64,000 bases of DNA from Amphiscolops sp. MND2022 (lineage: Eukaryota). The position numbers were made by a program, and so were the translations under genes. The stretch spans positions 69,814,001 through 69,878,000 of the forward strand of contig OZ076409.1 in the NCBI GenBank assembly GCA_964187785.1. The letters run 5' to 3'. How positions within the stretch are numbered: the first letter of the stretch is position 1; the number at the start of each line of letters is the position of its first letter. Of this stretch, positions 25,015-54,287 are shown piece by piece. The notes under the pieces were generated by a model. It saw nothing but the letters and a program-made list of their open reading frames with translations. It was not told where the DNA came from and made no database searches.

Positions 25015-25113
25015 GATGGAAATCAATGCCTGCACTTAGCCTGTCAAAGTGGCCACGCTGAAGTTATCAAATTACTCCTCAAAGCCGGAGCTGATCCCAA
25101 TTCCAAAAATTTG
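25015..25113 (+). CDS. ANKRD6: Ankyrin-repeat exon (DGNQCLHLACQSGHAEVIKLLLKAGADPNSKNL)
   Basis: TTTCAG/GTTAGT boundaries, 99 nt; LHLACQ motif. Confidence 0.88.
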
Positions 25114-26518
25114 GTTAGTTCATATTTGGACTTTTGTTTAAGCTGGCGACACTAATTGGCGCCATTGTGTTGACATCTTAAGTAAAGATTTCAGTTTCTT
25201 GAAAGGATGCCTCAATTGCTAATAGATATGGTCCTGTTGTAAAAATTCAATGGGAAACTTGGATGTGGGCTCTGTTCAATCAGTAATATTATTTCTGACA
25301 TATGCTTACTCTGAGCTTGCTCTAGAAGTCTATTTAACGTAGCTACAACGACCGGGAAAACCTGAAAAATCATTATCGTCCAGAATTTCGAAACATTAAA
25401 CGTTTAAGGCACATTGCCCAGAAACAAGTTTTTTTTTGTTTTAACGTTTTAACGCTTTACATGCTACAAGCCCGAATGCTGGGAAATTTTATTTAAAAAA
25501 CCTAAAAATTCAGAAAGCTTCCGGTAGTAAATTTGTGGGATTACACTGCAGATTCGACTAATGCCATTAAAATTGATAATTTTTCCCGCTTCGTTACCGA
25601 CACTGTCACCTCCTTTTCTCAACTATTCGTCGAACTTAATCACCGCTTCTCCAATAGCACGCGCAGAAGACGACGCTAGTTTGCAGTTTTTAACATGATT
25701 GAAGTTATATTAGAATGAAAGGGCACCAAAATGGATGACGTCTCAGCTGCATTTAAAAATGGAACTCCCAGCTTGACAACCATGGCCCATTCTTGGCTTT
25801 TCATCCATGATCAAGGCTTTTTCATAGCATTAAATTCGAACTATGACTAATCATCGCAGACGATTATTATTGCATTCGAGTCATGGTTTGTCATTCGTGG
25901 TGATTTTGTGATCATGGCTATGATGGGAACCCATGATTCCCCCATGAAGATCTATGACAAAAAGCTAAATGTTCTATTAACCATGAAAGTTTTTGACAAA
26001 ACTGTGAAAATTATTCCATTTCAGTAGAAACCAATCAGGAGGGTTTGAAGAGAACGAATTTTGTTTACTAAATGATTCCTTTAAAAATGTAGGAAAGCAA
26101 CAAAGTATAAAGCCGTACAATCTCATCGTTTAATATTAGAGATTGAACTACTTCTTTAAATTCACTAATTGTCTACTCTAGTGTTGTGTAAGAGCATCAT
26201 TATTACAAAATAAAAGAGGTTCTAGGCAATTCCATCCTCCAATTCATGGTTTCATTCATGATCATAGTATAATTCTCGGCATGGCGAACCCATGAATCAT
26301 GGATGATTCATTGATGGAAAGCCACGACTTGTGAACCTGAACCTAGAACCTTTTGTTTATTTCAATTACGTTTCGAAAGAACCCAATTGAACGGTTAACG
26401 AAACGTCCAAGAGGCATACTAAAATTTAATATTTCGCGCAACTCTTCGACAAATATTGAAGTTATATGGAAGCCAGTGAAAGTCCAATTAAACAAACAAT
26501 TATTCAAAAACTGTCCAT

Positions 26519-27199
26519 TCAAACTCGATCCAGTGTAAGATGCATATCATGCATACTGTCGTGATTTTGATCATCGTTATATGATTCAATTGAACTATCT
26601 CTAGACCTTTGTCTACAATTCAGTTGGCTTGAGAGTGTTTTAGGGCGCTTTTCCCAAGCTCTCAACACATTTTCAGCTTCGGGGTTCCGGTGTCGCTCAC
26701 TAGACTTTAGGTCCTCAGTGTTAGAATTTACAGTCCTCAAGCTGGGATGTAGCTCATTGGACCCTCGATCCACTACGGTCAAATCTGTTCTCCCCTGCTT
26801 CTCTATCGTATTATGGATAGAAGGAAGTACCTTTTCAGTAATCGCGTTGTTAATTGCATCTTGTATTTGGAAGTTCAGGCTAGTCTTAATTTCATTCAAC
26901 TTTCTTGACATTTGATTTAAAATTTCTTTACTAATCATTCTTGTGGTCTCAATAGCAATATCACTATTTTCTCTACTATTGGTGTTAAGTAAAGACTTGA
27001 AATCTTCCCCTACTAGATTTGAATTTTGTTGGGGTCTACTTGGACCTGAGTCTAAATTCACTTCGTTTTCGCTGCCATCATTTTCATTCTCATCTCTTGA
27101 GTAACTTCCTAACATAATATCTACATTTTCAACATCAGACATCAAGTCCATTTGTCTAGATCGGCGTTCTTTAGCCTTCTGTTTTCTCGTACAAGGCAT
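26519..27199 (-). CDS. LTR-encoded ORF (226 aa, about 214 codons inside the LTR); probable N-terminus of a retrotransposon ORF1/gag
   Basis: ATG lies about 135 nt downstream of the TATA box. The frame stays open through the LTR end. Basic N-terminus and an amphipathic helical segment. Confidence 0.55.
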   Translation of the reverse strand: MPCTRKQKAKERRSRQMDLMSDVENVDIMLGSYSRDENENDGSENEVNLDSGPSRPQQNSNLVGEDFKSLLNTNSRENSDIAIETTRMISKEILNQMSRKLNEIKTSLNFQIQDAINNAITEKVLPSIHNTIEKQGRTDLTVVDRGSNELHPSLRTVNSNTEDLKSSERHRNPEAENVLRAWEKRPKTLSSQLNCRQRSRDSSIESYNDDQNHDSMHDMHLTLDRV

Positions 27200-28076
27200 C
27201 AGAGAATATGTTCATTCAACAATCAATTCACAGTGTAATACAGAGCAAATCAACTTTCACAACGTAAACAATGGTCAACTTGTTTGTATCAAAGTTATAT
27301 TCAAAGTCGATCCCCTGCCTTCTCGTCCCTCCTATTTATAGTTGGACGAGAGGTGAAAGGTATAATTACGCGTGTTATGTAGTTAAATATAGGACACAAT
27401 CATCTAAAAATAGCTCCTTCAGCCTTTTCGTCATAGTGACGTCACTGGTCTAGGTTACATCAAAGGAGGATTAAACAATATGTCTACAAAATCCAACATC
27501 AATGTTCTACAACTAAGTATTTCATTCTCATGTTTCTAACTAAATAGCAACTTTGCATGAAGTGGATCTTTGGTAACATCATCAACATTTTGGTTGAATA
27601 GACATTCAGTCCAATTAGCTATAGCAACGCATTTGAATGGTAGCGTAATGTATGTCACGTGACTGGTTTCCGCTGTGGACTTTAAGTCCACGCGGCGACA
27701 GCAATGTAAGTATAAAAGAAGCACCGTGATTGGTTAATATTCTTTGGACTGAGCGTACATTGAGCAAGAGGAAAAGCACATTTGAACTCGTTTCCTTGTA
27801 TTAATCACTAGTATTGCTTTCTCATTTACATTGATTTCCAAATCAACTCATCACATTGGTAATCAGTCAACATCAATTGACAACACAGGCACAAAATGAA
27901 TAATTAAAACATAATATTAACTAAGTTTGTTTGTACTATCATTAATTTTGTTGTGGCTCAGAGGACTGCAAATCTTTTAAGTTTAGATAGGAAGTACACC
28001 AGGTGGAGGGGGTTAGTGTTATCCCCTTCAATCAGTGTTTGGTAGTAATTACCGTCAGAGGCGGCAGCCTGCGACA
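26557..28076 (-). mobile_element. Solo LTR (1520 bp) with 5-bp TSD
   Basis: TGTCG...CGACA termini; TSD CATAC at 26552-26556 and 28077-28081; minus-strand TATAAATA at about 27333-27340. Confidence 0.8.
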
Positions 28077-31000
28077 CATACCGACGGAATTTTTTTCCTA
28101 AAACCTCTTGTTGCTCAGAATTTTTGAGGAAAGCCGAACAACAAATTTTTTATTTATGCAAAGAGACAATGTTGTGTAAAGTTTATCAAATTTACAGAAC
28201 TGCAAAATTCTTGAAGGAATGCCCATAAGACCCGAGAAGCGCTCTTCCCCAACTTGAAACATCAAAAACTGAATTTTTTAATTTAAAAATTCAATTTTCC
28301 AAAAAAAATTTATCAGGCATAGTGCCGAAACGAAAACGGAGCTTTAAGCACGCCAAATGTCGCAGAGTGTCGAAAAAACCGTTGGTCTTTTCCACAAGTT
28401 TTTAGACAACTCATCGGTTCTCCGGGATCGAAAAACTTTTCGTGTCTCATGGCGCCAAAAATTTTACAGAAAGGACCCTTTGGACTTTTTATCATCCAGT
28501 TTATTGCAAAAAATCAAAATAACCAAAGAGGGGACCTTTGGCGGCACCAAGACATTTTGGAAAAAAATCTCACAATGCTGAAAAAAGCAATAAAACCTTC
28601 TGAGATGTCTAGTAACAACAAAAGCTTTAACCAGACGGGATCGTCTCAAGTCAGCGCCATATCTAAGGTTCAAAATTATTCAAAGAACAACTATTGGAAA
28701 CAATTGGAAAAATTATTTTTTTTTCAAAAAAACAAATTGAATTTTTTTTTTCGAAAAAAAGTATTTTTTAAAAAATCGCACAATGCCGAAAAACTCAAAA
28801 AGAGGCCATTCAGGCTCATTAAACGTTTTTACAAACCGAAAACTTCAAAAAAAATGCAAGGGGTTACCCTTTGAAAGAATCCGAAAATTTTCGAAAAAAA
28901 GTCGCATAGTGCCGAAAAAAAACGAAAAAAATCAAACGAAAGAAAACCTTTGGTCTCGCATCTACTTTTGGAAGCATAAAAATTTTGGGGTTTAGTGCGA
29001 GAATCGAACCCACGATCTCCGGCTTCTCAGAAAATTAGTTGAACAAATGGACAAAGATTGTAAGAAAAGTGGACCATTCAGAGTGAGATTGTAGGCTGAA
29101 AAAGAAAAAAACTACCCACTGTAATAGTCGGGCTTTTTTCCTTGAGGGAAAAGGCACCGACTAAAAACGATGGTAGCCAAAGGCCGTACGCTTTGGATGC
29201 ACCAGAGATTGCTTATTAGTAAGCTAAGAAGGCCTAGAGAATTTCTGTAAAAAGTGGAAATTTCAGCGTGAGTTTTGCTTTCACTTTTCAACATCAGACA
29301 TCAAGTCCATTTGTCTAGATCGGCGTTCTTTAGCCTTCTGTTTTCTCGTAGAAGGCATCAGAGAATATGTTCATTCAACAATCAATTCACAGTGTAATAC
29401 AGAGCAAATCAACTTTCACAACGTAACAATGGTCAACTTGTTTGTATCAAAGTTTTATTCAAAATCGATCCCCTGCCTTCTTGTCCCTCCTATTTATAGT
29501 TGGACGAGAGGTGACAGGCATAATTACGCGTGTCATGTAGTTAAATATAGAACACAATCATCTAAAAATAGCTCCTTCAGCCTTTTCGTCATAGTGACGT
29601 CACTGGTCTAGGTTACATCAAAGGAGGATTAAACAATAGGTCTACAAAATCCAACATCAATGTTCTACAACTAAGTATTTCATTTTCATGTTTCTAACTA
29701 AATAGCAACTTTGCATGAAGTGGATCTTTGGTAACATCATCAACATTTTGGTTGAATAGACATTCAGTCCAATTTGCTATAGCAACGCATTTGAATGGTA
29801 GCGTAATGTATGTCACGTGACTGGTTTTTGCTGTGAACTTTAAGTCCACGCGGCGACAGCAATGTAAGTATAAAAGAAGCACCGTGATTGGTTAATATTC
29901 TTTGGACTGAGCGTACATTGAGCGAGAGGAAAAGCACATTTGAACTCGTTTCCTTGTATTAATTACTAGTATTGCTTTCTCATTTACATTGATTTCCAAA
30001 TCAACTCATCACATTGGTAATCAGTCAACATCAATTGACAACACAGGCACAAAATGAATAATTAAAACATAATATTAACTAAGTTTGTTTGTATTATCAT
30101 TAATTTTGTTGTGGCTCAGAGGACTGCAAATCTTTTAAGTTTAGATAGGAAGTACACCAGGTGGAGGGGGTTAGTGTTATCCCCTTCAATCAGTATTTGG
30201 TAGTAATTACCGTCACAGGCGGCAGCCTGCGACACATACCGACGGAATTTTTTTCCTAAAACTTCTTGTTGCTCAGAATTTTTGAGGAAAGCCGAACAAC
30301 AAATTTTTATTTATGGAAAGAGACAATGTTGTGTAAAGTTTATCAAATTTACAGAGCTGAAAAATTCTTGAAGGAATGCCCATAAGACAAGAGAAGCGCT
30401 CTTCCCCAACTTGAAACATCAAAAACTGAATTTTTAAATTTAAAAATTCAATTTTCCAAAAAAAATTTATCAGGCATAGTGCCGAAACGAAAACGGAGCT
30501 TTAAGCACGCCAAATCTCGCAGAGTGTCGAAAAAACCGTTGGTCTTTTCCACAAGTTTTGAGACAACTCATCGGTTCTCCGGGATCGAAAAACTTTTCGT
30601 GTCTCACGGCGCCAAAAATTTTACAGAAAGGACCCTTTGGACTTTTTATCATCCAGTTTATTGCAAAAAATCAAAATAACCAAAGAGGGGACCTTTGGAG
30701 ACACCAAGACTTTTTGGAAAAAAAATCTCACAATGCTGAAAAAAGCAATAAAACCTTCTGAGATGTCTAGTAACGACGAAAGCTTTAACCAGACGGGATC
30801 GTCTCAAGTCGGCGCCATATCTAAGGTTCAAAAATATTCAAAGAACAACTATTGGAAACAATTGGAAAAATTATTTTTTTCAAAAAAAATAAATTGAAAA
30901 TTTTTTTCGAAAAAAAGTATTTTTTAGAAAGTCGCACAATGCCGAAAAACTCAAAAAGAGGCCATTCAGGCTCATTAAACGTTTTTACAAACCGAAAACT

Positions 31001-31433
31001 TCAAAAAAAATGCAAGGGGTTACCCTTTGAAAGAATCCGAAAATTTTCGAAAAAAAGTCGCATAGTGCCGAAAAAAAAACGAAAAAAATCAAACGAAAGA
31101 AAACCTTTGGTCTCGCATCTACTTTTGGAAGCATAAAAATTTTGTGGTTTAGTGCGAGAATCGAACCCATGATCTCCGGCTTCTCAGAAAATTAGTTGAA
31201 CAAATGAACAAAGATTGTAAGAAAAGTGGACCATTCAGAGTGAGATTGTAGGCTGAAAAAGAAAAAAAACTACCCACTGTAATAGTCTTCCCACTTAAGG
31301 GAAAAGGCACCGACTAAAAACGATGGTAGCCAAAGGCCGTAGCCTTTGGATGCACCAGAGATTGCTTATTAGTAAGCTAAGAAGGCCTAGAGAAATTCTG
31401 TAAAAAGTGGAAGTTTCAGCGTGAGTTTTGCTT
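27126..31433. repeat. Tandem duplication, unit about 2.16 kb (27126-29284 / 29285-31433)
   Basis: Collinear sequence at offset ~2159 with scattered substitutions. The unit is part of the solo LTR plus its TSD and the flanking dispersed repeat. Confidence 0.93.
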
Positions 31434-31642
31434 CCAGTGAAAAAGGTCACTGTAAGAGTCGCTCAATTTTTTGCACAAACAGTGCTTACTAAAAATGAGG
31501 AAATCTAATACCCGACCGTAAAGCAAGCGTCATTAACTTAATACTCACATTAATTACTTCTTCGTTTGCAGTCATGAAAACTGGGAATGTTAAACCCAGA
31601 ACCTCACTTATCGGCTATTTCCCCGCAATTGATGCTTGTAGA

Positions 31643-32086
31643 CAGGGTTGGTCATTTGTTTGTTTTTCATCAAATAAAACAAACAAACAGTTTTTAATGC
31701 AAATAAACAAGTTTTTTATTGTTTTTTATAAGTTTTCCACTTCAAACTGAGAAAAACTGATAGTATTGTTTCTTTATCTTCAACTACATTAAATGTAAAT
31801 AAAATAAACTTTCTTGTTTAATTGGCGATACATAAAGCAGAGTTCGGCTGCCTTTTCGTTATCCAGTTGGCATCTCAGCTTTCCATAAATGATTTTTTAA
31901 CATAAACAATATATCACTTTCAAAAAGTAGGTGATGAAAACAATCGAGAATAAAAAAAAACAATAAATTATCTTATTCAAATCCCAAAATGTTTAATAAA
32001 AATTTTTTAAAACGTTTTTTATTGATGTTTTAGAACGTTTTTTATTGACGTGTTTCAAAACATTGTTTTAAAACAGGCCAATCCTG
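31643..32086. mobile_element. hAT-type MITE
   Basis: TIRs CAGGGTTGG / CCAATCCTG; 8-bp TSD CTTGTAGA at 31635-31642 and 32087-32094. Confidence 0.85.
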
Positions 32087-33188
32087 CTTGTAGATAGCTT
32101 CACTGACATACGAAATCCTGAATTGTTCAATTGGCAGTACCGCATAAATGGAGCCTTTGAAAAAATCGCTTTGTTCATAAGATTCAGTTGGATTGAGCAG
32201 TAAGCAAATACCGAGTTGGTTTGGTTACTTCAATCAGTGTTTAAAATGAAAATAGAAACAGCAGCAGAACCTGAGAGTATCATACTTGCTTGAAATATTG
32301 GAATCAATATTCCAGCTTTGCAGAAAATTGATTGAAAGTACCGAAAGATCACATAAGTCTGTTACAGTGCAGTGGGTACTGTACCTTCCATTTCAGAAGG
32401 AAAGGAAACAATTGGCTTTTTTTCAAGCATAAAAACGATGTTCTTCTTCAACAAACACCTTGTTCACCAGAAGAAATTTTCAAATGTTGATCATCACAGT
32501 ATTTCCACCGTTAGAAAAACGATTGAAAACGGACTTTTGCCGCTGCTCCTAAAACTCTCTCCGTAGCTCCGTTACGTTAGACTTTCAGACTGACAATGAA
32601 TGTCCGAAAAGCTCTTGGTGACGTCGAGAATATTAATTTTGTGCTTTTCCTGCAGATGTTACGTGGTCTGTTTGTTAAAAAGAGACTGGTTGTTTGATGG
32701 TTTTCTCCCAGTTCTTTACAGGCGGGACTTATCAAAGACAATTTTTTTTGCAGATTTATTTTTTTATGAACTTTTTGCATACTGCATTTTATTGGATGAA
32801 ATGATAACAGGAAACATAGGTAGTTTTTTGTGTCGTTTATGAGAGAAAGTAATTTTAACAACGTTTCGAATATAATGCAGTGTGGCCAGTTGATTTTGCC
32901 AAAAACTGATCATGCATTACAGCAAACTGAGATTTAGTTGACAATATCTTTAAATAATTCAAATAAAACCATAACTACATAAAATGGCATCTAAGTTCCT
33001 GGGTATTTCAAATTTCTACCTCAAATGGTCTTTGAGGAATAGCTTTTTTGGCAAGCTCAAATAGCCAAAGCTACTCTGTACTACAGTTAGTCTCGAATCT
33101 CGTATTGAAATGTGGCATTTAAATGCAAGTTCGACGTAATTGACAAAAGTAGCCAATTCTTCAATTAAAAACACTTTTGAGAAAATAC

Positions 33189-36100
33189 TGTTATATTCTA
33201 CTACTCTAACTAGAATTGAGAAAAGAGTAAAAAATATTTCACTAGTTGTAACGGCAAGCTCTGGTACAGCAATATCAACCGATTTTGCAACTTTGACATG
33301 TTCAGAAATTTTGTCAAAAATTCTAATCCGATGTGTGACGTGGCACTGAGCATGTGATTGCTCTTTTCGCTGTTTCCACGAAATTGGCAGGTACTTCGAC
33401 AACAAAGAGCAAGAACGAGCAAAAACACGGGCGCGCCGCCATGAAAAAAGCCAGAGACGGCAAGAACATCCGAAAATAGACTCTTTTTGAGGTGCTAACA
33501 CCGGTTTTATCGATTTTCAGCATTATGCTACCCTATGTAGCGGAAACCGTAAAAATGAGTCTTTTCGCCTAAAGATCCTTGTTTGGTGCTTGGAGCCCCT
33601 GCGCCCCAGCTTTTTAGCTGTGTGGTTTGCCATATTCGTGCCTGTTTTCATGTATTTTCAGTGATTTTGGCTGTATTCAGTAGCGTTAGCGCTAGTTTAG
33701 ATCTTATTCCCCAATTTTAGATCTTATTCACATCTATCTCATCTATCAGTCGGATGGAATGTGGTTCAACCATCAACTTCACCTCTCGTACATAAGTGCA
33801 AATCACTGAAAACAGCTAGAAAAACCTGTTAAACACCAGTAGCGACGTGCTACTGTCCACTACGCTTCTAAAAAGAGGACCCGCTGATGGGAACCTTACA
33901 ATTTTAGACGATATCTGTCAACAAGTACCTGTTATCGAAATATACCAAAGCTACTCGGAAAAATCCCCCGAAAGACTGGAAAAATACCAAAATATAATGT
34001 CATATCATCTAAAAAATTTGGAAAAACTCTGGGTAAACGTCTCCTTCCAGAGTCCAATCGTTCTTGGCGTCCAATACCAGGGGGTCGGAAATTTCAAAAC
34101 CATATAATAGGGCAGTAATCGGAAGCGATCCCTCTGTGGTCGCCAAAAAATGAGGTCTCATGTAACGGCAAGCAATTATCGGTCGCTTAACACATTAACA
34201 GAGGTGGAGGAACCTGCAGGAATGGGTGATTCGCTCGGGACAGGCGCCCATCGCCACAGATCCATTTTGCCTCCAGGGGTGAAATACGTCCCGGGGCCGC
34301 GGGTGCTTCGACGAATACTGTCCAACCGGTCCTAGTCTTTGATTGCTAATAGTAACGGGCATCTTTCTGGCTCTCTAAAGACCACCGCTTAACTAGCATA
34401 TAAAAACAATGCCAAGAATAAAGTAAATTTCCAGTTCCAGGGTGACATGTGAATAAGATCTAAAATTGGGGAATAAGATCTAAACTAGCGCTAGCGCTAC
34501 TGAATACAGCCAAAATCACTGAAAATACATGAAAACAGGCACGAATATGGCAAACCACACAGCTAAAAAGCTGGGGCGCAGGGGCTCCAAGCACCAAACA
34601 AGGATCTTTGGGCGAAAAGACTCATTTTTACGGTTTCCGCTACATAGGGTAGCATAATGCTGAAAATCGATAAAACCGGTGTTAGCACCTCAAAAAGAGT
34701 CTATTTTCGGATGTTCTTGCCGTCTCTGGTTTCTGTCATGGCGGCGCGCCCGTATTTTTGCTCGTTCTTGCTCTTTGTTGTCGAAGTACCTGTCAATTTC
34801 GTGGAAACAGCGAAAAGAGCAATCACATGCTCAGTGCCACGTCACACATCGGATTAGAATTTTTGACAAAATTTCTGAACATGTCAAAGTTGCAAAATCG
34901 GTTGATATTGCTGTACCAGAGCTTGCCGTTACAAGTTCTAGACTGTTTTCTATATAACACAATTGTAGTAATGTATCATATGCAATTTAATATAGGTGGA
35001 GTTTGTTTGTATACAACTCTGGTTTCTAGATACTAGACAGTCTGTGAGTTTATAGACCGAAGCTCGGTAGAGGCCATGTAAACCGGATTGAACCGAATAT
35101 GACATTTCTCCCCCTATTCTTTTCTCGTATTCTTCTTTTAGTTTCGATTGGAGGGGCCTGGTGGTGTAACTTCTTCGGGAAGGAAGTCCGCTGGTTTCTG
35201 TACCGTTTCCGGCTTGGGTGTTCCCTTGTGTCTATTCCACACAGTACCCGTTATTTCGCTGTCGGTATGCAGTTGTAGTGCGTCCTCTTCCGGATTTGTC
35301 CGTATTGGCACAAATCTTCCGTCTTTCTCGGACGTGTCATATATGATTGGTGTTCCAGTTTCTTCCGGCATTTCTTCATCGTCTTCATCGTCGTCATCAT
35401 CGTCGGTATCGCTTTCTGCCCGCTTTTTGTTCTGGACGATTTTTAGTTTGCCGTTTAGGATGTCCCGGAGGATTTCATCCAGTCGGCCGTACTTCCCGTC
35501 CAGTCCTCGTAGGCAGTGTCGGTTTTTTGCATTTCTTTCTCCGGTTGTGTTTAGTGCCGGTTGTCTTCTGCTCTTTCTTTCGGTCGAATTCTTCTTCTTC
35601 GGTGATTTCGGTCCCTCGGCGAGGTGTTTATCCTCTGTTTTTGTCCTTGCCATCACAATATGATTTGTGATGTCCCCATCCGCGTCGCGGCCCACGTATA
35701 TGGGGATTTTGGGTCTGTTTGTTGCTGATGCGAGGCAGGCTGTACAGTATTTCACCTTGTTTTCAATGTCCTGCTTCTTTTCGGGCCACCAGAATGTGCG
35801 TGCTTCCGATATCATCTTCGTTATGCCGGAATGACCGAAGTGGAAAATAACCAGAAGTCTTCGTCTTAGATCGATGGGTACCACAATTTGGTCGTCGACG
35901 AAAACTAATCCCCATCTTATCGATAGCTTGTCGAATACAGTCCGGTAGCCATCCGGAATTGTTTCCCGATCTTCTCTTCTCATGCTATTTCTGACACGAG
36001 TTAGCTCCGGGTCGATTGCTGTTTTGGCGATCAATGTTTTCAAGTCCATCATGAACTCGAATTCCGCTTTCTTTATGTGTTCTTCCGTTATTTTCTTGTT

Positions 36101-37655
36101 GCTTGTTAGTTTCCCGCCGATGTGGTTAATTTGTATGTATTTGGCTTTTTTCCGTCCGTGTTGTATTTGCTGAGGTCTACTATCGGTAGATTGTCGCCCC
36201 GCATTATGACACTGTCTTCTTCCGTTTCGGCGTTTTCAATTTCCAGTTCCCCTTCTTCCCGTATTTCTTCCGGCTCGTCTTGTTCCTCAATCGATGGTTG
36301 GTATCCGCCGCCCAGTCGATTTGCTCTTCTCATTATTTCTGCGTCGATCTGCGCATTTTCCTCTCTGCTTCGTTTATTCGGTCTTGATGGAGCGAATACT
36401 GTCTGTTGAGTGTAGTGGTCATATCGACGTCTCAATGTTCCCGGTCGGGATAGTTCATTTCTTTGATCTATCAGCCGGTGTGTTTCCGGGCTATTGTTGC
36501 GCCTGCGGATGATCTCCATTATTTCGCGTGTGGCGCCATTTTCACGGTCCATTTCGGTAATTTCCGTTTTTAATTTCCGAGTTTTTGGATCTTGTTTTGA
36601 ACTTTTAATTTCTTTCGTTGAACAAATTGATTCTAGCGTGCTAATTTTGGACTGCCCGGATGTGGTTTTTCCGTTTCGTTGGTCTTTGTTCACGCTGTTT
36701 TTGTTCTCGAATGTTCTATTCGTTTGTGATTGCTTAGTGCGGTTCTCATTTTGTTCTTCAGATGTATCTTTTTTTGTTTTGGTTATTGGTTTCTCGCGTT
36801 TTGATTGGTCGGCGAATATTGGTCCGTATTTCATATTCAATTTTGCTTGTTCGGCTAATATGTTAATGACGTATTCCTCGTCGTAGGTTTATTCCGGTGT
36901 GGCTCCCCCTACCGGATTTCTACTGAGGTAGTCGGTAAATTTCAAGTTATTACCTGCGATATGCTGTATTGATATATCGAAGTGAGTTAAGCGATCTAAC
37001 CATCTCGTTAGTCGTGCGCTATATTGTTTATTACTCCGGTTCCTTTTGATTAATGGTTCCAATGCTTGGTGGTCGGTATATAAGTATATACCTTCTTTCA
37101 TTATAAATAAAATCGGAAATTTTCAAGTCCCCATACTACTGCTACAATTGTAGTTCACCGATAGAATATTTCTTTTCGGTATCGTTCAAGTATCTGCTTC
37201 CGAATGCTATCGGTTTTGTGTTTCCATCATCTTGTTTTTGCCATAATGTTATTCCGAGTCCGGTGGTGCTTGCGTCCGTCGTTACTATATTATCTTTGTC
37301 TTTTGCGTAATGTGTTAAGCACGGACCCTCGGTTAGCATTCGTTTTATTTCTTCAAAGTCTTTCTGCTGTTCTTCTCCCCATTTCCATGGTTCATTCTTT
37401 TTCAGTAGTTTCCGTAGTCGGTCGGTTTGTTCCGAAAGTTTCGGTAGAAATTTTGCCATGTATTGTAATGCCCCGAAAAATAAATTCAGTTCTTTGGTAT
37501 TTTCCGGTGGTTTTAATTTCAGTATTGCTTCCACTTTCTCTTCGTTCGGTTTAATCCCGTTTTCGTCGATTTCATGTCCCAACCATTTTATTCGGTTCAT
37601 TAAAACTTCTGACTTCTTTTCACTTGCTCGGTATCCAGCTTTTTCCAATTTATTT
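33189..37655 (-). mobile_element. Decayed, 5'-truncated Ty3/Gypsy element (RT end, RNase H, internally deleted integrase, PPT, split 3' LTR)
   Basis: Motifs WLGHEI, TTDASTTGLG, YTDHQAL, DYLSRNP, FHFGHSG...CTAC. PPT AGGGGGAGAAA at 35105-35115. The 3' LTR (TGTCATATTC...GAATATAACA) lies at 34934-35104 plus 33189-33246. Confidence 0.88.
33247..34933 (-). mobile_element. Rearranged (foldback) LTR element of the 3-bp-TSD group
   Basis: Complete LTR at 34161-34933 (TGTAACGGCAAGC...GCTTGCCGTTACA), PBS at 34128-34145, and 487-bp inverted arms at 33247-33733 and 34447-34933. Flanks are AGT/AGT. Confidence 0.9.
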
Positions 37656-37971
37656 AGGAAAAACTCAGTCAGTAAAAAATGATATTACCAAAAACATCCT
37701 TTTCTCTTGTAGAATTAAACTGTCGTCATTTGAATAATGTTTAGCAGACAAAAAGATTCTTTCTGAATTTTTTAATGTTTGGTTGCCGTCTCGAAATCAG
37801 GAACACCTTATCATCTTTATTTTGGTTAATTTCTTATGACATTGCACGTGTTTTGATTTTCTGAAGTTTTTCATCATAATCAGTTATTTATTTAATTGTG
37901 GCTTCTTGCCAACAACCACAATTGACGCTGTCTGAACTTATTAACTGCTGGAAACATTTTCCCAAGGATTG

Positions 37972-40266: not shown

Positions 40267-43200
40267 TGTGGCATGAAATGGCTAAACGAACCATACTGCC
40301 AAAATGGACAGTGAACTACCTGCCACTTTTATGATGTCATGTAACACTGATGCGTATATAGAAAAACTGAGATCATACATACAACTTAGATTTGCTTAGA
40401 TCGATACGCACTTGCTTTTAATACATTGTATTTATCCTCCTGTTTCTCCAAGTTACTTCATGGCGCAGTCAGCATCTTGAACAAAAAGAAAAAACAATGG
40501 ATAATAACAACACTGACCTCAATTCCACGGAGGACAGACCGATGTCTTCGGAACAGACAACACGGACAACCAACAATCAAACGATGTCAGAAAGAGCGGA
40601 AAAAAGCAAATACAAGATTCCCATTTTGTCTGATAGAGAAACTGATCTTACCAAAGCCAACCCAAAGATGTGGTGGGAACAAATTTCAGAATACATTCTT
40701 CTGACCTACAACCGAAACTTGGACGAAATTACCGATGAAGGAGTAGAATACATGGACCCCCACACGGTATACCATATAAAAGGTGACGTTATTTGGGCTT
40801 TAGGCCCAAAAGCCAAACATGAGATCATGAGAGGACAATGGGGCCGAGAAATAAAAGATGTCAAATTGCCCGAACTATTGACACTATTCAAAAAAACATT
40901 TCTCCCGGTAAGAAACGTCTTCCACAGCAGGGCCCAATTTTTCAACATGAAGCAAGACGATAACGAAACTTTAGATGAATATTGGAAGAGGCTAGTGGAC
41001 ATCGAGAGAAAGTGTGAATTTGGGAACATAACGGCAGAAGAAATCATCACGTACAAATTTGCAGCCACAATTAAAGATAAACGAGCCCGGGACAAATTCA
41101 TAAAGGGCCCTCTGAAAATACAACTGGTATTGGAGACCATAGAGCTCGACAATTACAACAGAAAGTACGGTGATAAAAAATCCAAAACCAAAAAAGCCAA
41201 GAGAGATTCCACAAGTAGCTCAACAAGCACCGAACTAATCGGACATACGAACCAATTACGGAAGCGGAGGACACAACACAACGAAAAAAAGAAATCAACG
41301 AACAAAAACTGTCGCTTTTGCGGAAAACCAAACTGGTCCATGGAACATATTTGTCCGGCACGGAGAGCACAATGCAATATTTGTAAAAAGATGGGACACT
41401 TTGCCAAGGTATGCAAATCCAAGACCGTAAGCCGGATAGCCGAAACGGTTTCATCGGACAGTAACACCGAATCATGGCCGGAAGTGGACCATATTCAATC
41501 CGTGAACGGTATCAACCGAGTTGATTTCTACAAAACCGTCCTATTGGTCCACGGCCAGCCAATAGAATTCATTATCGATACCGGCTCTCCAGTCACAATT
41601 ATTCCGCCAATTATTGATTTGACCGAAATGAAGAAAACGACAAAAACATTTGTGGATGTAAACAAGAACCCAATAAAGTTCAAGGGGGAAGCCATGGTTG
41701 AAGTGAAAACAGAAAAAAGCAGAGAGATATTACCTATCTTAATAACAGAAAATAAAAATACTCAACCATTATTGGGCTTGGACTGGCTTGATAAATTGGA
41801 AATTGGATTACAAGGCAGCAAGAAAACAAATGTTATTCGTCATGTGACAGAAGACGAAAGAAGAAAAAGAATCCTCAACGAATACGAAGACCTATTCAAA
41901 AACAATCACACTATCAAAGACCTTACCATCGACATTCAGTTGAAGAAAGACGCCAAGCCAATCCAGCAAAAGGGACGGCCAGTCCCTATCCATTTCCAGA
42001 AAATCGTCCGTGAAGAGTTAGAAAAACTAATAGACAAAGGACATCTGGAAAAGGCCGACAGAACAACTGAAAATTGCTTTGTATCACCCGCAGTCATCAC
42101 CATCAAAAAGGACAAATCTGTCAAAATAGCTTTGGATTCACGAAAACTGAACGACGCATGCATAAAAAGAAAAGCTGCAATGCCGAACATGGAAGAATTG
42201 ATCAGCAAAATTTCCGCAAAAATTACCAAAGGAAATGGGGATATTTGGATGTCCAAAATTGATCTAGATTATGCATACGGACAAGCGAAATTGTCGAAAG
42301 AAGCCGCAAGACATTGCGTATTTTCCATCATTGGGGGAGAATTCACCGGACACTACCGGTTCAAGAAAGGTTTCTACGGCCTATCCGACATTCCTACGGT
42401 ATTCCAAGAACACATCGACTCCGTGTTGGAATTCAAAACACCGGTCTGGCTAGACGACATCATATGCGTGACTAATGGTGACATCGAAGATCACGAAAAA
42501 GAACTGCGAGAAGTTTTGTCAAAACTGCAAGACGCCGGCTACCGGGCAAGTGAAAAGAAAACAGAATTATTCAAAAGAGAATTAACCTGGCTTGGCTACT
42601 ATATCAACCAAAACGGTGTCAAACCAATCAAGGACAAAACGGAAGCAATAACTAAATTAGAAGCCCCGAAGAACGTGAAAGAACTGAAATCATTCCTGGG
42701 ATCAATACAGCATTTATCAAAGTTTATCAACAATCTATCGAAGAAAACCGATGAAATGAGGAAACTCTTGAGAAAGGATACCAAATGGGAGTGGACACCC
42801 GAGATAGATGAAGACTTTGAAAAGCTGAAGAAAGAGATTACAGAGGCTCCATGCCTAGCACATTTCGATCCACAGAAGGAAAACTATATCACCACAGACG
42901 CATGCAACACCGGACTGGGCGCAACACTATGGCAGAAAGAAGGTGAAATTTTCAGACCCGTAGCATTCGCAAGTAGATTTTTAACTGATTGTGAAAAGAA
43001 ATACGCAATTAATGAATTAGAATTACTAGGGGCTCTGTGGGGTTTAGAATACTTCAGGTATTTTGTGTACGGAAAAAGAGTAAATTTGTTAACAGATCAC
43101 CAGGCGTTACAACCGCTGTTAAAAAAGAACCGAGCTCATAAACAATACAGCGCACGATTAACACGCTGGCTGGATAGGTTGAGCCATTTCGATGTTAATG

Positions 43201-46182
43201 TCCAATACACGGCCGGTAAAAACATTCCGCTGACGGACTATTTGAGCCGTCATCCGATTATACCATCCGAGACCACCGAACTAGAAAACAAAGCGGACGG
43301 ATTAATCGAAGCGGAAGCCGAAGAAGAGTTCGTCATTAATCAAATATACGGCTTATTAGAATTCAACCAAAAACGCGGCAGCATAAAACGATTCACTGAA
43401 CAAAACGACACGACAGAAAAATTCAACCAATCACAACGCGGTTTCAACACACGCGAACGGAACCAAAATACTCATTTGCTTAAAGCCTCACCGTTACCAA
43501 ACAGCAGCATTCTAAACTCATTCAAAACTTTACCGCCGCCAAGCAATAAAATGGACAAAGTCAACGGAATCGATATGGATTTCATATTTAAAAAGAGGGG
43601 CCACTCACCAGAAACGAAACGTTTATGGATTGAAAGAAATCATATCCTAAAACCGGACAAAACACGAATAGTGGGCAAGGGCAAAGAAAGCGAGAGAATT
43701 CAAGAATACAGGCCCAATCAAGCGGGGCGAAAACGAATTGCGGAATTAAACATTGAAATTTATAACCGTTTCTTCCACTATTGCGAAACATTAAACACGA
43801 CCCCTCTACAAGAATTCCAACAGGACAACAATGAATCCTGGATCAACAGCAATCAGTCCGATGGAGAAAGCCAGACGAGCCGAATAAAGCAAGACAAATG
43901 CCCCACCAACGCATTGAGACGGTTCAAGAAGCACGAAACGGTCAATCTCATTAGACTGAAACAGACGGCCAAACTGAACACGCTAGAGCCAGAGCAAAAC
44001 GAAAATACCGCTAACGTACTGAAGAAAGCTGAGAAGGATTTTGCACTGGACTTGCCTCTACTAGTGGAGGAGACAGCACGCGATATCAAAATTCTAAACA
44101 CAATTGCCGCAATTGAACAGCAACAATTGGAGAGTATATTCTATCCATACCGCCCCCACCGCCTACATCTATCAACCAGATTCGGACTGCTATTCTATAA
44201 CGACAGAATAGTCATACCGGAAAACATGCGGTCGACAATCATCGCTATGCTGCATCACGGCCATGTCTCCAAAAATAAAATGGAACAACTTGCAGAAGCC
44301 TTCTGGTGGCCCGGCCTGAACCGAGACGTGCACGAAAAAGCGGAAACATGCCCGAGTTGTAGAGCCGCAGGTAAGAACATCATTACACAAATTCCGTCAA
44401 CGGAGAAAAATAATTTAGAAATTCTAACCGAGCCGAATCAAGAGATTCAATTGGATTTCGCCGGTCCAATCAAATCAAAATCACGCGGTGACGTTTACAT
44501 TTTAGTAGCAGTAGACCGTTTTAGTAAGTGGCCCACCGCACAAGTATGTAAAAGTGCGGATACTCGGACCGTTTTGAAATTTTTAACCGAATATTTCACG
44601 AACAACGGGACACCACAGTGCATTAGAACCGATAACGGCAGCTGCTTCAAAAGCAGCGAATTTAAAAAATTTTGCGCGGATGAAAACATAAAACGAATAA
44701 GATGCACTCCGAACTTACATACCGGCACTGGTCTAGTCGAGCGTACGATACGGACAATTAAGTCATTAACTAGAGCAAATATGGCCGACGGATTAAAATT
44801 TGAAGACAGCATCCAATTAGCAATCAAAACAATCAGACAAACTCCACACAGTAGATTAAATATGACGCCATTTCAAATGCACTTAGGCAGAAAGCCAAGA
44901 ACTGCACTTATCAACATAATCGGTAAACCTGAATGTCTGTTATCCAATTGGAAGAATACACTAACTAATTACATTTCAGCACAACCAACAGAGTTACAAG
45001 TAGTCACCATCAACGATGCTGAAGGGGAAATGGCTGACTACCTGGTGCTCAACGATACTCGAAAAAGAAGTCGTACGGTAAGCCGGAAATTCAAAAACTA
45101 TCAATTTTTAGAAAAAGAAAGCAGACCCAATTCAATGAAATGTGGTTTCAAAACGGATAAAATTTTAACGGCAACAAAAGAAACCGACCATACTGTCACT
45201 ACCTCTGACGGCAGAATAATACACAAAAAACTTGCCTCTAAACCTTTAAAATTTCAGACCCAAAGGAAACCAGACGAACCGAAGAAGGCCATCACCCGAT
45301 GCAAAAGATGTGGAAAATTCAGCAGCGACAGATACTGCGAAACACACCGACAATTAGACAACAACAACAACGATGCCGAGGAAGGACCGAGCACCAGCCG
45401 CAATTTCCCGACAATGCCCGCAAAGAAAAAATACAAACGGGTAATCGTTTACGATTCGTCCAACACCACCGACCACAGCTCAGGAGAAGATAACCCAAAC
45501 TCCGATAGAGAAGAAGAAGATCCGGAAGAGGCAGACCTCAGAGCCGAGATCGGACGTGAAATTGAAAGACTGCGGGAACAGACACCGGCACCCACAACAC
45601 AAGTCGGATGTAGCACCGGACGGGCCAATACTCCACCACAGCCGGATGTTCAGGGCACACCGATACACCGCCAAACAACGCTCGACACTGGAATCGAAAT
45701 CGCCGAACCAGGAGACGGGATAACAGGTAAAATTAGGACGGATCAAAACTCTTACTTTGAAAAAAATCAAATAAAATCAGAACCCGAACCGCGTAGATCC
45801 GAAAGGATAAAATCAGCACGAAGAGTAGTGAAACTAGGTGGGGTAGAATATTTTTAAAACCTTTACGTTTAGGAGACACCTACACTTTCACCACTCCAGC
45901 TCGATTCCCGTTCACTCCATTTCCACGAATCAAGAAAGGCACTACACGACAACAGTGGTTCCCTTAGAAGGTCCCGGAAGAAGGGGAATGTGGCATGAAA
46001 TGGCTAAACGAACCATACTGCCAAAATGGACAGTGAACTACCTGCCACTTTTATGATGTCATGTAACACTGATGCGTATATAGAAAAACTGAGATCATAC
46101 ATACAACTTAGATTTGCTTAGATCGATACGCACTTGCTTTTAATACATTGTATTTATCCTCCTGTTTCTCCAAGTTACTTCA
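40267..46182 (+). mobile_element. Intact full-length Ty3/Gypsy LTR retrotransposon (Mag-like)
   Basis: Identical 194-bp LTRs (40267-40460, 45989-46182), TSD GAGGT, PBS TGGCGCAGTCAGC (tRNA-Ser type) directly after the 5' LTR, PPT GGAAGAAGGGGAA. Confidence 0.97.
40497..45857 (+). CDS. Single gag-pol polyprotein, 1786 aa (gag with two Zn knuckles, protease, RT, RNase H, integrase)
   Basis: CRFC..H.C and CNICKKMGHFAKVC; IIDTGS; KIDL...WLDDI; TDAC...ELE...TDHQAL; H..H..CPSC; LDFAG/TDNG/GLVER. Domain order PR-RT-RH-IN. Confidence 0.97.
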   Translation: MDNNNTDLNSTEDRPMSSEQTTRTTNNQTMSERAEKSKYKIPILSDRETDLTKANPKMWWEQISEYILLTYNRNLDEITDEGVEYMDPHTVYHIKGDVIWALGPKAKHEIMRGQWGREIKDVKLPELLTLFKKTFLPVRNVFHSRAQFFNMKQDDNETLDEYWKRLVDIERKCEFGNITAEEIITYKFAATIKDKRARDKFIKGPLKIQLVLETIELDNYNRKYGDKKSKTKKAKRDSTSSSTSTELIGHTNQLRKRRTQHNEKKKSTNKNCRFCGKPNWSMEHICPARRAQCNICKKMGHFAKVCKSKTVSRIAETVSSDSNTESWPEVDHIQSVNGINRVDFYKTVLLVHGQPIEFIIDTGSPVTIIPPIIDLTEMKKTTKTFVDVNKNPIKFKGEAMVEVKTEKSREILPILITENKNTQPLLGLDWLDKLEIGLQGSKKTNVIRHVTEDERRKRILNEYEDLFKNNHTIKDLTIDIQLKKDAKPIQQKGRPVPIHFQKIVREELEKLIDKGHLEKADRTTENCFVSPAVITIKKDKSVKIALDSRKLNDACIKRKAAMPNMEELISKISAKITKGNGDIWMSKIDLDYAYGQAKLSKEAARHCVFSIIGGEFTGHYRFKKGFYGLSDIPTVFQEHIDSVLEFKTPVWLDDIICVTNGDIEDHEKELREVLSKLQDAGYRASEKKTELFKRELTWLGYYINQNGVKPIKDKTEAITKLEAPKNVKELKSFLGSIQHLSKFINNLSKKTDEMRKLLRKDTKWEWTPEIDEDFEKLKKEITEAPCLAHFDPQKENYITTDACNTGLGATLWQKEGEIFRPVAFASRFLTDCEKKYAINELELLGALWGLEYFRYFVYGKRVNLLTDHQALQPLLKKNRAHKQYSARLTRWLDRLSHFDVNVQYTAGKNIPLTDYLSRHPIIPSETTELENKADGLIEAEAEEEFVINQIYGLLEFNQKRGSIKRFTEQNDTTEKFNQSQRGFNTRERNQNTHLLKASPLPNSSILNSFKTLPPPSNKMDKVNGIDMDFIFKKRGHSPETKRLWIERNHILKPDKTRIVGKGKESERIQEYRPNQAGRKRIAELNIEIYNRFFHYCETLNTTPLQEFQQDNNESWINSNQSDGESQTSRIKQDKCPTNALRRFKKHETVNLIRLKQTAKLNTLEPEQNENTANVLKKAEKDFALDLPLLVEETARDIKILNTIAAIEQQQLESIFYPYRPHRLHLSTRFGLLFYNDRIVIPENMRSTIIAMLHHGHVSKNKMEQLAEAFWWPGLNRDVHEKAETCPSCRAAGKNIITQIPSTEKNNLEILTEPNQEIQLDFAGPIKSKSRGDVYILVAVDRFSKWPTAQVCKSADTRTVLKFLTEYFTNNGTPQCIRTDNGSCFKSSEFKKFCADENIKRIRCTPNLHTGTGLVERTIRTIKSLTRANMADGLKFEDSIQLAIKTIRQTPHSRLNMTPFQMHLGRKPRTALINIIGKPECLLSNWKNTLTNYISAQPTELQVVTINDAEGEMADYLVLNDTRKRSRTVSRKFKNYQFLEKESRPNSMKCGFKTDKILTATKETDHTVTTSDGRIIHKKLASKPLKFQTQRKPDEPKKAITRCKRCGKFSSDRYCETHRQLDNNNNDAEEGPSTSRNFPTMPAKKKYKRVIVYDSSNTTDHSSGEDNPNSDREEEDPEEADLRAEIGREIERLREQTPAPTTQVGCSTGRANTPPQPDVQGTPIHRQTTLDTGIEIAEPGDGITGKIRTDQNSYFEKNQIKSEPEPRRSERIKSARRVVKLGGVEYF

Positions 46183-46824: not shown

Positions 46825-47027
46825 TATTCTGATATGATGAAATTAAACAATTCGTATAGAAAAAACGCAACAACACAAAAACGCAAGACAGGGTGCGAAT
46901 TTTTCTTGGTTTTTACGTTGTTGTGACTTGTACCTTCGTGGTTGAAAACAGATGACAGTGTAGCTTCAATTTACTAGCTTATTGTCAGTACTGCGGATTT
47001 TTAAGTGGTGAAACAGGGTTGGTGTAA

Positions 47028-47552
47028 ACCCTAGTCGAGATTGCTTGAACTTTTTACATGCTGCATGGAAACATGCAGGATAATTTTTTACAAAACATGG
47101 AAAATTCCGGGAGCCTGCATGGAAACATTTTGTAGGATTACAATGCAGCCTCCACTATTTCAATTAAAACTGAAAACATTTCCACTTCTTCACCGCCGCG
47201 ATCATTTTGTTTTCACGCGTAAGTTTCTCAAGTAAGTTCCTTGTGTACCTTATGTAATCACCGTTAGTCAAATAGCACGCTGAATATGACACTACTTTGA
47301 AACTTGTATTGGGACTGAAGTTTATTTGCATTGAAAACGCGGTAAAATTGATGACGGTCTCAGCTGCTTTCAAAATTAGAACGGCGTCTTAATGCAACCT
47401 GCAAAACTTTGCGGCGCAAAATTGCCGCCAAATTTAGGATGCATCTTATAGGCAGCTTGATAAAATTAAATCGAATCAGTGAAGTTTTGTTGCATGGACT
47501 TTTTTTTGAGAATTTTAAAAAATCATGGAAAATTAGCTTTGTAACTTCTAAA
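47028..47552. repeat. Dispersed repeat, paralog of 14030-14745
   Basis: Direct sequence similarity; the ORF track shows the same spurious peptides at both loci. Confidence 0.85.
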
Positions 47553-50164
47553 AATTGATTCCAAGCAACATGAAAACTTGCAACTAAAAACGTTTTATGA
47601 GCAACATTGTTTTAACCTTAAATCTCCCGAATTATTTTGTCCCAAGTCATGAAAAACCTTGGCTACTTTTTTTCTTGGTAAGCTTACTAGAAAAACTGAA
47701 AATTAAAAAAAAACAGTTGCTGAAAAACAAAGTTTTGTTTTTTGGTGTTAACTAACATCTTAACCGAATGTGTTATTTTCGAACACGTTATAATAATGAA
47801 CGATAAAACCCACTACGATACTATGATACATTCGGTTTTGCTTTTGAGCAATATTTCAGAATTGAAAAGTTTTTCCTTCAAATGAAGTTGAAAATATTTC
47901 CTCCTACTGAAAGGTTTATTCGTCCTCTAGCAAGAAGAAGTACAGTAATGTAATGAAAATGCATTCATAGAGCTAAAGATTGACCATATTGTTTGGCTTG
48001 AAAAGAAAAATGCTTCTTGGAATCCTCTTGTGTGACCTTGAAAACATCACCGGAAAATATGAAGATTTCTATTTAAATGTACATTGTATTGTCCCCACAA
48101 AGAATATATGTGTATTTTTTGCCTGGTAGGCGTTGCTTTTTTGTACAATCGCAGTAGACGCGCTGCCTTTTCTGAGTCGACCTTGATTGACATGTTTCTT
48201 TTCATTCTTTTGTCTAAAATCAGTCAGTCAAGCAGACATGAACACATTTACTTTCTCGAGACAATGGAAAGGAACCTTTTCGACAAAAAGACAATGAAAT
48301 AAAACCAAGTGGTTCCCAAGGCCTTGTCTAAAATTACACAATTTCCCAAGACCACTTGTGTGAAATTGTTTCTGACGTATCTGGTCGGGCAAAGTCTATG
48401 AAGAAAATCAAGCCTAAATTGGGCTAATTTAATTTGCACTGAGTTTCGGAACAGTGGAATTCGACATCATGAAAGAACACAAAAAGGCCATTCAGTCAAT
48501 TTATATCTCCTTGAAAACAGTGATCATTTTGATCCAAAAAAAAGCAGATCAGGTCAAAAAGATAACCCAGTGAATCAACCTATTTTTTTCGATTAGATTC
48601 GATAAAGATATTGAAAATAAAACCATAAAACCAATGCCGTTTTCTGGTCGATGAAAGTTCTTTGTCGGTTCAATCCGTATCAGACAGTCCGCTTCTATGA
48701 AATGGTCGTGTGGAATGACTTCCCAATACTTGTGTTTTTTTTTTAAAAAAAAAGTACCAGACCTTTGCACAAATTTGGACCAACGTTACAAAATTCACAG
48801 GAAAAAGCACACTTCATATTTAAAATCTCAGTAAAAAATCAAAAAATGAAAACTTCGCCGCCAGGCCATTATTTTCTCCCGCCATTCAGTAAATTGAATT
48901 TGTTGTATACATGTATTACAATGTATTAAAATTAAATTACAATTACAATTAAATGCATTACGCAATTATTTAGTGGCGTTATTTAGTTGCACTATATTGT
49001 TGACGTAAGCATCAAAAAAGAAGTTACTAAGCCAAGGACGTTCTTCCAAGAGATGGTTTCAGGTGGAAAGATGAACTAAAGTGTACCTACCATGTCTGCT
49101 TTCCCTAGAGTATAGGAATACAAGTATTCTTTGATCCCTGGGAAAAAATTTTCCGCAATATGCTTAATAATAGGAAAATATATTGCTTGTTTGTTGTCAA
49201 GAAGCCTTCAGAGTAAGTATTTACTTCAAAAGCTTCAAAATTAGACGTAAATAAAATGAAAATGAAGTAAAGGTTTATTTTAAAAATATTTATTGTAAGT
49301 TATTGGCGCTGCAAAGAACAAAAACTGCAACGAATATTTTCAAAGTCAAGTTTTTTTTGAAGAATCTCGATTTCAAAAAAGAACACGTTACCATCAATAA
49401 AAGCGACCTTTATAAATTTTCACTTTATTCATTACTTTTGCAAAGAGTAAATCAAAAACATAATTCGGAGTTTTAAACAAGACAATAATATTCCATTCCC
49501 TTTTAAGAACAAAAATTTGGAATTAGATGAAGAGAAAATCCATCTCGAAATTTCTAGCTCATTTCACAATTTCTCAATGGGTTTTCTTGGAGTGTCACAC
49601 GGATGTCTATGTCACTAATGAGTAGCATTTTATCTGTCTGCGCTTTGAATGCTGCCATGAATGAATATTGGAAAATCAGACAAAATTCTTACAGGAATAC
49701 TTGTTTCTCCTTTTTTGTATGTAACGTCTTGAGTCTCAATGAAATTGCTTCGGCGTGAAGAACTAATGGCAAAATTGTAATTCTGAAGGTGTTGTTTTCA
49801 CACAACCCCCCATTTCTATTCTAGGTACAGTGTTCATGTCATTTCCTCTGAAATATTGATCACTGGGTTATAAACTTAATGATTACTAGTTAATGAATAC
49901 AGTGTGGGGTATCACCTGGGGTTATTGAGGATTACATCAGCACCTCATATCCGCCTGTAACTGCCCGAAATATACATGTACCTACTTCATCTTATTTACT
50001 TGTTTGCTATTTGCTTGTTTGTTTCAATTACTCCATTTACCTCGAAAGCACCCACCCCTCAAATTTCAAAAAGACAGCCTGAAAATACCTCTCCACGGAA
50101 TTTCTTACCCTGACAATCCATTGTTGAGCTTTCTATTGTTTATTTTTGTTTTTTCTTCATTTAG

Positions 50165-53111: not shown

Positions 53112-53378
53112 AAAAAGTATTTTAAAGTTTCCTGATTAAGAAAAAGAAATTTCTACATTTTCCCGAGTCTTCGATAAGTTTCAACTCTTTACAACTTTAC
53201 TTACAAAAAAGTATTTTAAAGTTTCCTGATTAGGAAAAAGAAATTTCTACATTTTCCCGAGTCTTCGATAAGTTTCAACTCTTTACAACTTTACTTACAA
53301 AAAAGTATTTTAAAGTTTCCTGATTAGGAAAAAGAAATTTCTACATTTTCCCGGGTCTTCGATAAGTTTCAACTCTTT
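53112..53378. repeat. 94-bp tandem repeat, about 2.85 copies
   Basis: GTATTTTAAAGTTTCCTGATTA starts at 53117, 53211 and 53305; copies nearly identical. Confidence 0.93.
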
Positions 53379-54185: not shown

Positions 54186-54287
54186 GAAAGGAACACCCCT
54201 TTACATATTGCTGTGCAGTACAATAGACAAGAGTTTGCACACGCCCTATTGGACCTGGGAGTGAACCCCAACTCTGTCAGAAACTTG
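54186..54287 (+). CDS. ANKRD6: Ankyrin-repeat exon (ERNTPLHIAVQYNRQEFAHALLDLGVNPNSVRNL)
   Basis: TTGCAG/GTGAGT boundaries, 102 nt, phase 0, TPLH motif. Confidence 0.87.

Follow-up and report, generated by a model that had tools for sequence, protein, structure and literature searches.

A foldback copy of an LTR retroelement with two U3 ends and a 3-bp target duplication inside a Gypsy LTR

The unit at positions 33247–34933 of the window (the whole 64-kb stretch of DNA analysed here) carries two U3 ends of one LTR in opposite orientation and is flanked by the same trinucleotide on both sides. This foldback structure is real in the assembly, and every part of it is of LTR-element ancestry. The best explanation, to which we assign a probability of roughly 45%, is a one-off accident in which one template switch during plus-strand synthesis would have given a cDNA with two U3 ends that was inserted once by integrase.

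The window looks like animal DNA; it carries ankyrin-repeat exons and a number of Gypsy elements. There are four ankyrin-repeat stretches, all on the plus strand and all matching Pfam Ank, and the foldback unit lies between an upstream exon at 25021–25119 and a downstream exon at 54186–54287 of a gene for which ANKRD6 is a putative name; a search with the ankyrin exon returned no candidate. The Gypsy element at 40267–46182 (plus strand) is very young, with identical 194-bp LTRs and a single 1811-codon frame that contains gag, RT, RNase H and integrase domains (with ∼340 residues between the last two); its closest database relatives are 87–89% identical, and a database search with Gypsy pol gave 73 matches at E 1e-60 or better, of which the three that carry a name are at 31% identity. 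Two decayed Gypsy elements of opposite orientation (59155–61428, minus strand; 62604–63978, plus strand) have between them a palindrome at 61623–61840 (109-bp arms, 87% complementary, no spacer) that adjoins an LTR ending at ∼61402; an assembly gap of 200 N (58948–59147) adjoins a decayed Gypsy element. Other repeats include a ∼2.16-kb tandem duplication (27126–29283 and 29285–31436, 96.9% identical), a 94-bp unit in three tandem copies (53112–53393), a dispersed repeat (14029–14739 and 47027–47554, 87–88% identical to each other) and a segment at 14867–15942 that resembles a foldback-type DNA element, with terminal inverted repeats of 19 bp and 15-bp units arranged in inverted arrays (14910–15049 and 15562–15738). 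A 230-codon frame at 26519–27211 (minus strand) has no Pfam match; presumably it is the start of a retroelement ORF.

The two arms of the foldback unit (33247–33733, plus strand, and 34447–34933) are 487 bp long and align without gaps; they differ at only seven sites (98.6% identity), six of them transitions, in agreement with the handful of differences seen previously. Read on the minus strand, the unit starts with a complete 773-bp LTR (34933→34161), continues with a 15-nt spacer, a PBS-like site and a leader that extends to 33734, and ends with LTR positions 487→1 in inverted orientation, that is, with a second U3 end. The same 13-bp terminal word is found at 33247, at 34161 and, reversed, at 34921, which defines a 773-bp LTR with a 13-bp terminal inverted repeat; its termini are TG...CA. 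The internal stretch between the LTR and the inverted arm (33734–34160, minus strand) is cut at 427 bp. The layout proposed in the earlier note (5′ LTR, PBS, about 400 bp of leader, inverted 487 bp) is confirmed, the PBS as a PBS-like site.

The PBS-like site starts at 34145 (minus strand), 15 nt past the LTR, and its motif begins with TGG, which we take to resemble the 3′ end of tRNA-Arg. No direct-orientation 3′ LTR, PPT or long ORF was found in the unit, whose longest reading frame has 95 codons, and its loop contains no internal complementary region, the only match being the 13-bp LTR end. Rfam returned no match over 32900–35300 at E up to 1, ARAGORN found no tRNA in the whole window, and a comparison of three LTRs revealed no conserved TATA or poly(A) signal.

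At the foldback junction (33733/33734) an internal position of the LTR, 487, is joined to the internal leader, with no LTR end on either side. An 8-bp direct repeat (33731–33747) has one copy across the junction (33731–33738) and the other in the leader (33740–33747); its probability by chance was 0.049 over 1500 random window positions and 0.018 over 1020 element positions.

The TG...CA LTR unit recurs, as in integrase-type LTR retroelements, in two places in the window (56601–57353; 568–1322 and 5296–6049) and in a contig of an independent sequencing run. The better preserved relative, at 568–6049 (minus strand), is a non-coding 5.5-kb element without any frame of at least 120 codons. Two direct LTRs with a PPT before the 3′ LTR, a structure that the foldback unit does not have, are present in this element: its LTRs (568–1322 and 5296–6049; 755 and 754 bp) show 4 differences (99.5% identity) and have a 13-bp terminal inverted repeat, and a purine tract precedes the 3′ LTR. 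It has the same PBS region, 16 nt from the LTR, and 22 of the 23 nt that make up the PBS-like site and its adjoining bases in the foldback unit (34128–34150, minus strand) are the same as at 5262–5284. The element also holds a 291-bp internal duplication (4022–4306 and 4383–4667).

Alignment of its LTR with that of the foldback unit scored −34.5, against −187.7 ± 17.2 for 100 shuffles, and the 427 bp of the foldback unit scored −8.5 against its 5′ internal sequence (shuffles, −91.5 ± 12.7). In local comparisons of the leader, three of five sense-strand segments gave colinear matches that equalled or exceeded the best of 40 shuffles, and these extended to about nt 373; none of five antisense segments exceeded the shuffles. 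Two older LTR relatives are found at 56514–58492 (minus strand), where a 753-bp solo-like copy (56601–57353) lies inside a fragmented older copy. The solo-like copy is a closer, though older, relative of the foldback LTR than 568–6049 is, with 548 of 734 aligned columns identical (75%). By these homologies the 773-bp unit is a true LTR and the loop a truncated leader. No coding partner was found for the family: a tblastn search with the window's Gypsy pol returned no match in 568–6049 or in the foldback unit.

The foldback unit sits within sequence of another element. On the right it is bordered by the first part of a Gypsy 3′ LTR (34937–35104, minus strand), which adjoins a purine tract (∼35105–35125) and follows broken pol pieces (35138–37684, minus strand; RNase H and integrase zinc finger, with the 5′ part missing). 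The first 10 nt of this LTR, counted from 35104, recur in inverted form in the left flank, where 9 of 10 match at 33189 (0.026 expected in the 550 nt scanned); this would mark the end of the last part of the same LTR (33189–33243, minus strand). No second copy of this LTR exists in the 64-kb window. A 12-nt motif in common with another Gypsy LTR is located 8 nt from the boundary. Beyond it, the spacing was compared with that of a related LTR in a weak test, in which the predicted offset scored 11 of 20, no better than one other offset. Local alignments of the two halves to two other Gypsy LTRs did not rise above shuffles in any of five cases. The rejoining of the two halves described in the earlier note is supported indirectly, by the terminal inverted match: it places the end of the LTR and gives one 226-bp host Gypsy LTR split by the foldback insertion.

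The trinucleotide AGT is found on both sides of the unit (33244–33246 and 34934–34936, plus strand). Among lengths from 2 to 7 only a 3-bp duplication fits, and the chance of such a match is 0.021 (random position pairs in the window); the AGT duplication reported before thus stands. The earlier note had inferred that the element integrated in foldback form. The intact TSD shows that there was a single insertion site, not that integration took place in this form: the 13 bases beside the TSD are identical for U3 and U5 ends, so that the TSD does not discriminate between mechanisms and would equally survive if the 3′ LTR were inverted where it stood or if a template switch occurred later.

The earlier note recognized AGT but overlooked that the related normal element in the same window also has a 3-bp duplication. 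Element 568–6049 is flanked by TAT on both sides, a trinucleotide different from AGT, and the probability of two 3-bp flank matches by chance is 4e-4. A 3-bp TSD is therefore seen in two of the three insertions of this family group that have both ends. The third is the old solo-like copy 56601–57353, whose flanking triplets mismatch and where no duplication fits (its length surplus is ∼3 nt). The intact Gypsy element at 40267–46182 has an ordinary 5-bp duplication. In the foldback unit and in 568–6049 alike, the following base of the flank would also allow a duplication of 4 bp, provided that one terminal base is assigned to the target. The 3-bp footprint thus seems to be a family trait, judging from two insertions.

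LTR finders usually expect 4–6-bp TSDs, and TG...CA elements with 3-bp duplications would escape those that do. Most LTR retrotransposons have 4–6-bp TSDs and TG...CA ends, and Troyka elements combine 3-bp TSDs with CG...CG ends and LTRs of 100–400 bp, as described by Kojima (2025; PMC12440569). We lean slightly towards the view that the parent family represents a lineage in which TG...CA ends, long LTRs and 3-bp TSDs go together; the Troyka paper lists no such combination. If so, integrases with a 3-bp stagger would belong to two lineages, Troyka and this one, and the parent family may matter more than the foldback copy itself. Our literature searches, with Repbase and supplements outside their scope, found no description of TG...CA elements with 3-bp TSDs; this is a weak negative, as the Troyka paper was missed too. 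No TSD data were found for Kuafuorterviruses in the first part of PMC11673190, and the Odin paper contains neither 'TSD' nor 'target site'.

A search of public runs returned one run (X1, share 0.17) and no RNA data set. Independent data came from the contigs of this run, which were compared with 31500–34446, a segment that holds one arm only. Three contigs matched, two of them being short matches to more distant relatives. The third, 745 bp long and a single collapsed path with a depth of 5.45, runs through 34190–34446 and then through 33733–33247 on the opposite strand; it represents a normal LTR, colinear through position 487/488, and stops at the first base of the LTR. It differs from the left arm at three sites, at all of which it has the letter of the right arm, and from the right arm at the other four, so that at none of the seven mismatch sites do both arms differ from it. 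Four further letters differ in the 257 bp outside the arm; thus, the contig is not simply the foldback locus. If it is the majority sequence of the family, the probability of seeing no shared changes is 0.26, 0.059 or 0.004 for an arm copied at 0.3, 0.5 or 0.7 of the element's age, respectively, and on that assumption the arms have diverged independently since about the time of insertion. In exact-pattern scans, the LTR end combined with the PBS had no match among contigs of viral, metagenome or prokaryotic genome origin, and the first 24 nt of the LTR had none among those of viral or metagenome origin; an animal genome is not expected in these collections.

One template switch is favoured as the most economical explanation because it accounts for the deletion and the inversion together. 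After the second strand transfer, the plus strand would have copied the LTR, the PBS and ∼400 nt of leader; at LTR position 487 it would then have moved to a second plus-strand strong-stop DNA and used it as template as far as the 5′ end of that molecule. Through this single switch the rest of the internal region would be lost, and both ends of the product would be double-stranded U3 ends that terminate in CA. An integrase supplied in trans could have taken both ends, the U3 and U5 ends having 13 bp in common, and inserted the molecule into the Gypsy LTR, after which host repair would have closed the branched middle. Template switching has been proposed as a source of complex integrated plant elements (Sabot and Schulman, 2007; PMC1950507), and movement of strong-stop DNA between two co-packaged genomes has been proposed for asymmetric HIV LTRs (PMC9278108). 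We found no description of the foldback structure or of this exact route in the literature, again a weak negative with Repbase and supplements outside the scope.

Several further observations speak for the template switch. The junction is internal-to-internal; the TSD has the same length as that of the normal relative 568–6049, which fits concerted integration of the regular kind (according to PMC2857682, duplications are aberrant when integration is uncoordinated); the matching ends of the host LTR point to one site; and each arm appears to have gathered its own changes since roughly the moment of insertion. On the other side, neither an intermediate nor an intact parent element was seen. Against it stands also the 8-bp junction repeat, which would favour the repair-based alternatives, although polymerase slippage can produce such a repeat too. 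In our judgement the repeat resembles the product of synthesis-dependent end joining. Of the two origins that the earlier note offered for an aberrant cDNA, template switching is thus the leading model. Simple autointegration is rejected: it would join an LTR end to its target, and the junction here joins LTR position 487 to the leader.

It is rather unlikely, in our view, that a normal element was inserted and rearranged only later, either through a flip of its 3′ LTR between the 13-bp inverted ends plus a central deletion, or through a repair or replication switch that used the 13-bp identity and put the 5′ LTR, copied in inverted orientation, in place of the 3′ part. Such a course of events requires two rare events, although the terminal identity would preserve the TSD at no cost and the 8-bp junction repeat is like an end-joining scar. 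The arm divergence of 1.4% is also an ordinary value for an LTR pair (compare 4 differences in 755 in the relative). Zero shared arm changes, the count observed, is what would be expected if the original 3′ LTR had been inverted, whereas the same count disfavours late copying of an arm (0.059 at half age, 0.004 at 0.7).

Two cDNAs might instead have entered one site in opposite orientation, through concerted use of their U3 ends or through a second insertion into the duplication made by the first, with the centre lost later by end joining or deletion. We assume that the junction repeat and the asymmetric centre would fit the repair of the resulting long palindrome. Double insertions that produce inverted LTR tandems do exist, in the Rover element of Drosophila (PMC5932611), but this explanation needs two or more events, and neither a third copy of the TSD nor the U5 end of a second element remains. 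Different templates could have added differences, yet each arm is only 3–4 changes away from another copy of the LTR, the X1 contig; we consider such a double insertion unlikely.

The earlier note also raised the possibility of a multicopy, LTR-derived element mobilized in foldback form. Such an element would be moved as DNA by the family integrase, in an LTR-to-TIR conversion. In form the unit does resemble a TIR element, its ends being TGT and its TSD clean, and Ginger1 TIRs may derive from two oppositely oriented LTRs (Bao et al., 2010; PMC2836005). Nothing was found in support of mobilization, which appears quite improbable: the one LTR contig available passes 487/488 in normal colinear order, there is no second foldback in the 64 kb, where the other family members have direct LTRs or are solo copies, there is no integrase ORF (the longest frame is 95 aa), and seven arm mismatches suggest no recent mobilization.

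A foldback chimera created in assembly is very improbable. The X1 contigs do not cover the junction, the leader or the flanks, which in a comparison restricted to 31500–34446 is not evidence of absence, but the arms differ at seven sites, split 3/4 against the independent contig, and a chimera would not break off exactly at an LTR end, with the second half of the host LTR following behind a 3-bp duplication. Least probable of all are two unrelated opposite insertions with an intervening deletion and AGT by chance, against which stand the TSD chance of 0.021 and the host-LTR end match of 0.026, or a DIRS-like element, whose pattern is indeed one of inverted LTRs with a flanking trinucleotide (PMC7192593), but the relative has direct LTRs, a PBS, a purine tract and a different trinucleotide, and no internal complementary region exists beyond the 13-bp LTR end.

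Retrotransposition needs a direct 3′ LTR and a PPT. Because it has no direct 3′ LTR, PPT or ORF, the foldback copy appears to be dead and should not retrotranspose again. RNA folding of 33247–34933 paired 483 of the 487 arm positions in register, with perfect runs of up to 140 bp, and a predicted intron transcript would carry both arms because the unit sits between two ankyrin exons (called from ankyrin motifs only). Transcription from the element itself, which the earlier note had expected to give ∼490 bp of dsRNA in the intron, would include both arms only if it started within the first 487 nt of the LTR; of that expectation, the predicted duplex and the position between ankyrin exons hold. 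The sole likely activity of the unit is thus the predicted 487-bp hairpin, if the intron is transcribed, and a near-perfect hairpin of this kind is a possible source of small RNAs against its own family.

As a single copy, the unit is a readable scar of a retrotransposition error. Given the identical 13-bp ends, we infer that integrase may use a U3 end in place of a U5 end, and the foldback suggests that it can use two U3 ends when the LTR ends are symmetric. The unit also shows one step through which long terminal inverted repeats can arise in an LTR element; in the proposed origin of Ginger1 this is the step that had been left open. The multicopy reading, if true, would make it a living LTR-to-Ginger conversion, something merely hypothesized by Bao et al. 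(2010; PMC2836005).

Comparison with known systems puts the foldback unit among elements that it resembles only in part. The closest class, as we see it, is that of the non-autonomous LTR retrotransposons of the LARD/TRIM type. Like these, the family has a TG...CA LTR, a PBS-like site, a purine tract (in the relative), no long ORF and a short TSD; unlike them, the foldback has a second LTR that is partial and inverted, the PBS-like site of the two related elements lies 15–16 nt from the LTR, and the 3-bp TSD is shorter than the 4–6 bp given for most LTR elements (PMC12440569). Troyka elements share the 3-bp TSD, the animal host and the occurrence of non-autonomous members, but two of their defining features, the CG...CG termini and LTRs of 100–400 bp (PMC12440569), are at odds with the TG...CA ends and 754–773-bp LTRs found here, and assignment of the foldback or of 568–6049 to Troyka is rejected.

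Ginger1 and Ginger2 have inverted TGT ends, and the foldback has TGTNR termini as they do; these transposons are described with TIRs of 40–270 bp, 4-bp TSDs (5-bp in TDD) and an integrase-like transposase (Bao et al., 2010; PMC2836005). The foldback unit, with 487-bp arms, a 3-bp TSD, no ORF and a retained PBS, differs in TSD and arm length and apparently in transposase (no frame above 95 aa and no second copy in the window), and assignment to Ginger is rejected. The same authors suggest that the TIRs of Ginger1 may have originated from inverted LTRs and regard the course of events as unclear (PMC2836005).

Complex elements formed by template switching (PMC1950507) and HIV proviruses with asymmetric LTRs (PMC9278108) are similar in that the product of abnormal reverse transcription was still integrated. 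As described there, they are fusions or deletions in direct orientation, whereas the second end of the foldback is an inverted LTR start. The inverted LTR tandems of Rover in Drosophila also have two opposite element ends at one site, but they keep both elements and a target motif at the junction (PMC5932611); the foldback has lost its centre. Retrotransposons of the DIRS1 type, which encode a tyrosine recombinase, have inverted LTRs and a trinucleotide at both flanks (PMC7192593). The foldback, in contrast, has neither an ICR nor a recombinase, and its relatives have direct LTRs, a PBS and a purine tract; with no ICR, and with direct LTRs as the normal structure of the family, it is not a DIRS element. 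Penelope-type inverted pseudo-LTRs have no PBS and no TG...CA ends and are rejected on these features. In function, the foldback unit behaves like a dead aberrant LTR insertion, and it is a TIR element in looks only.
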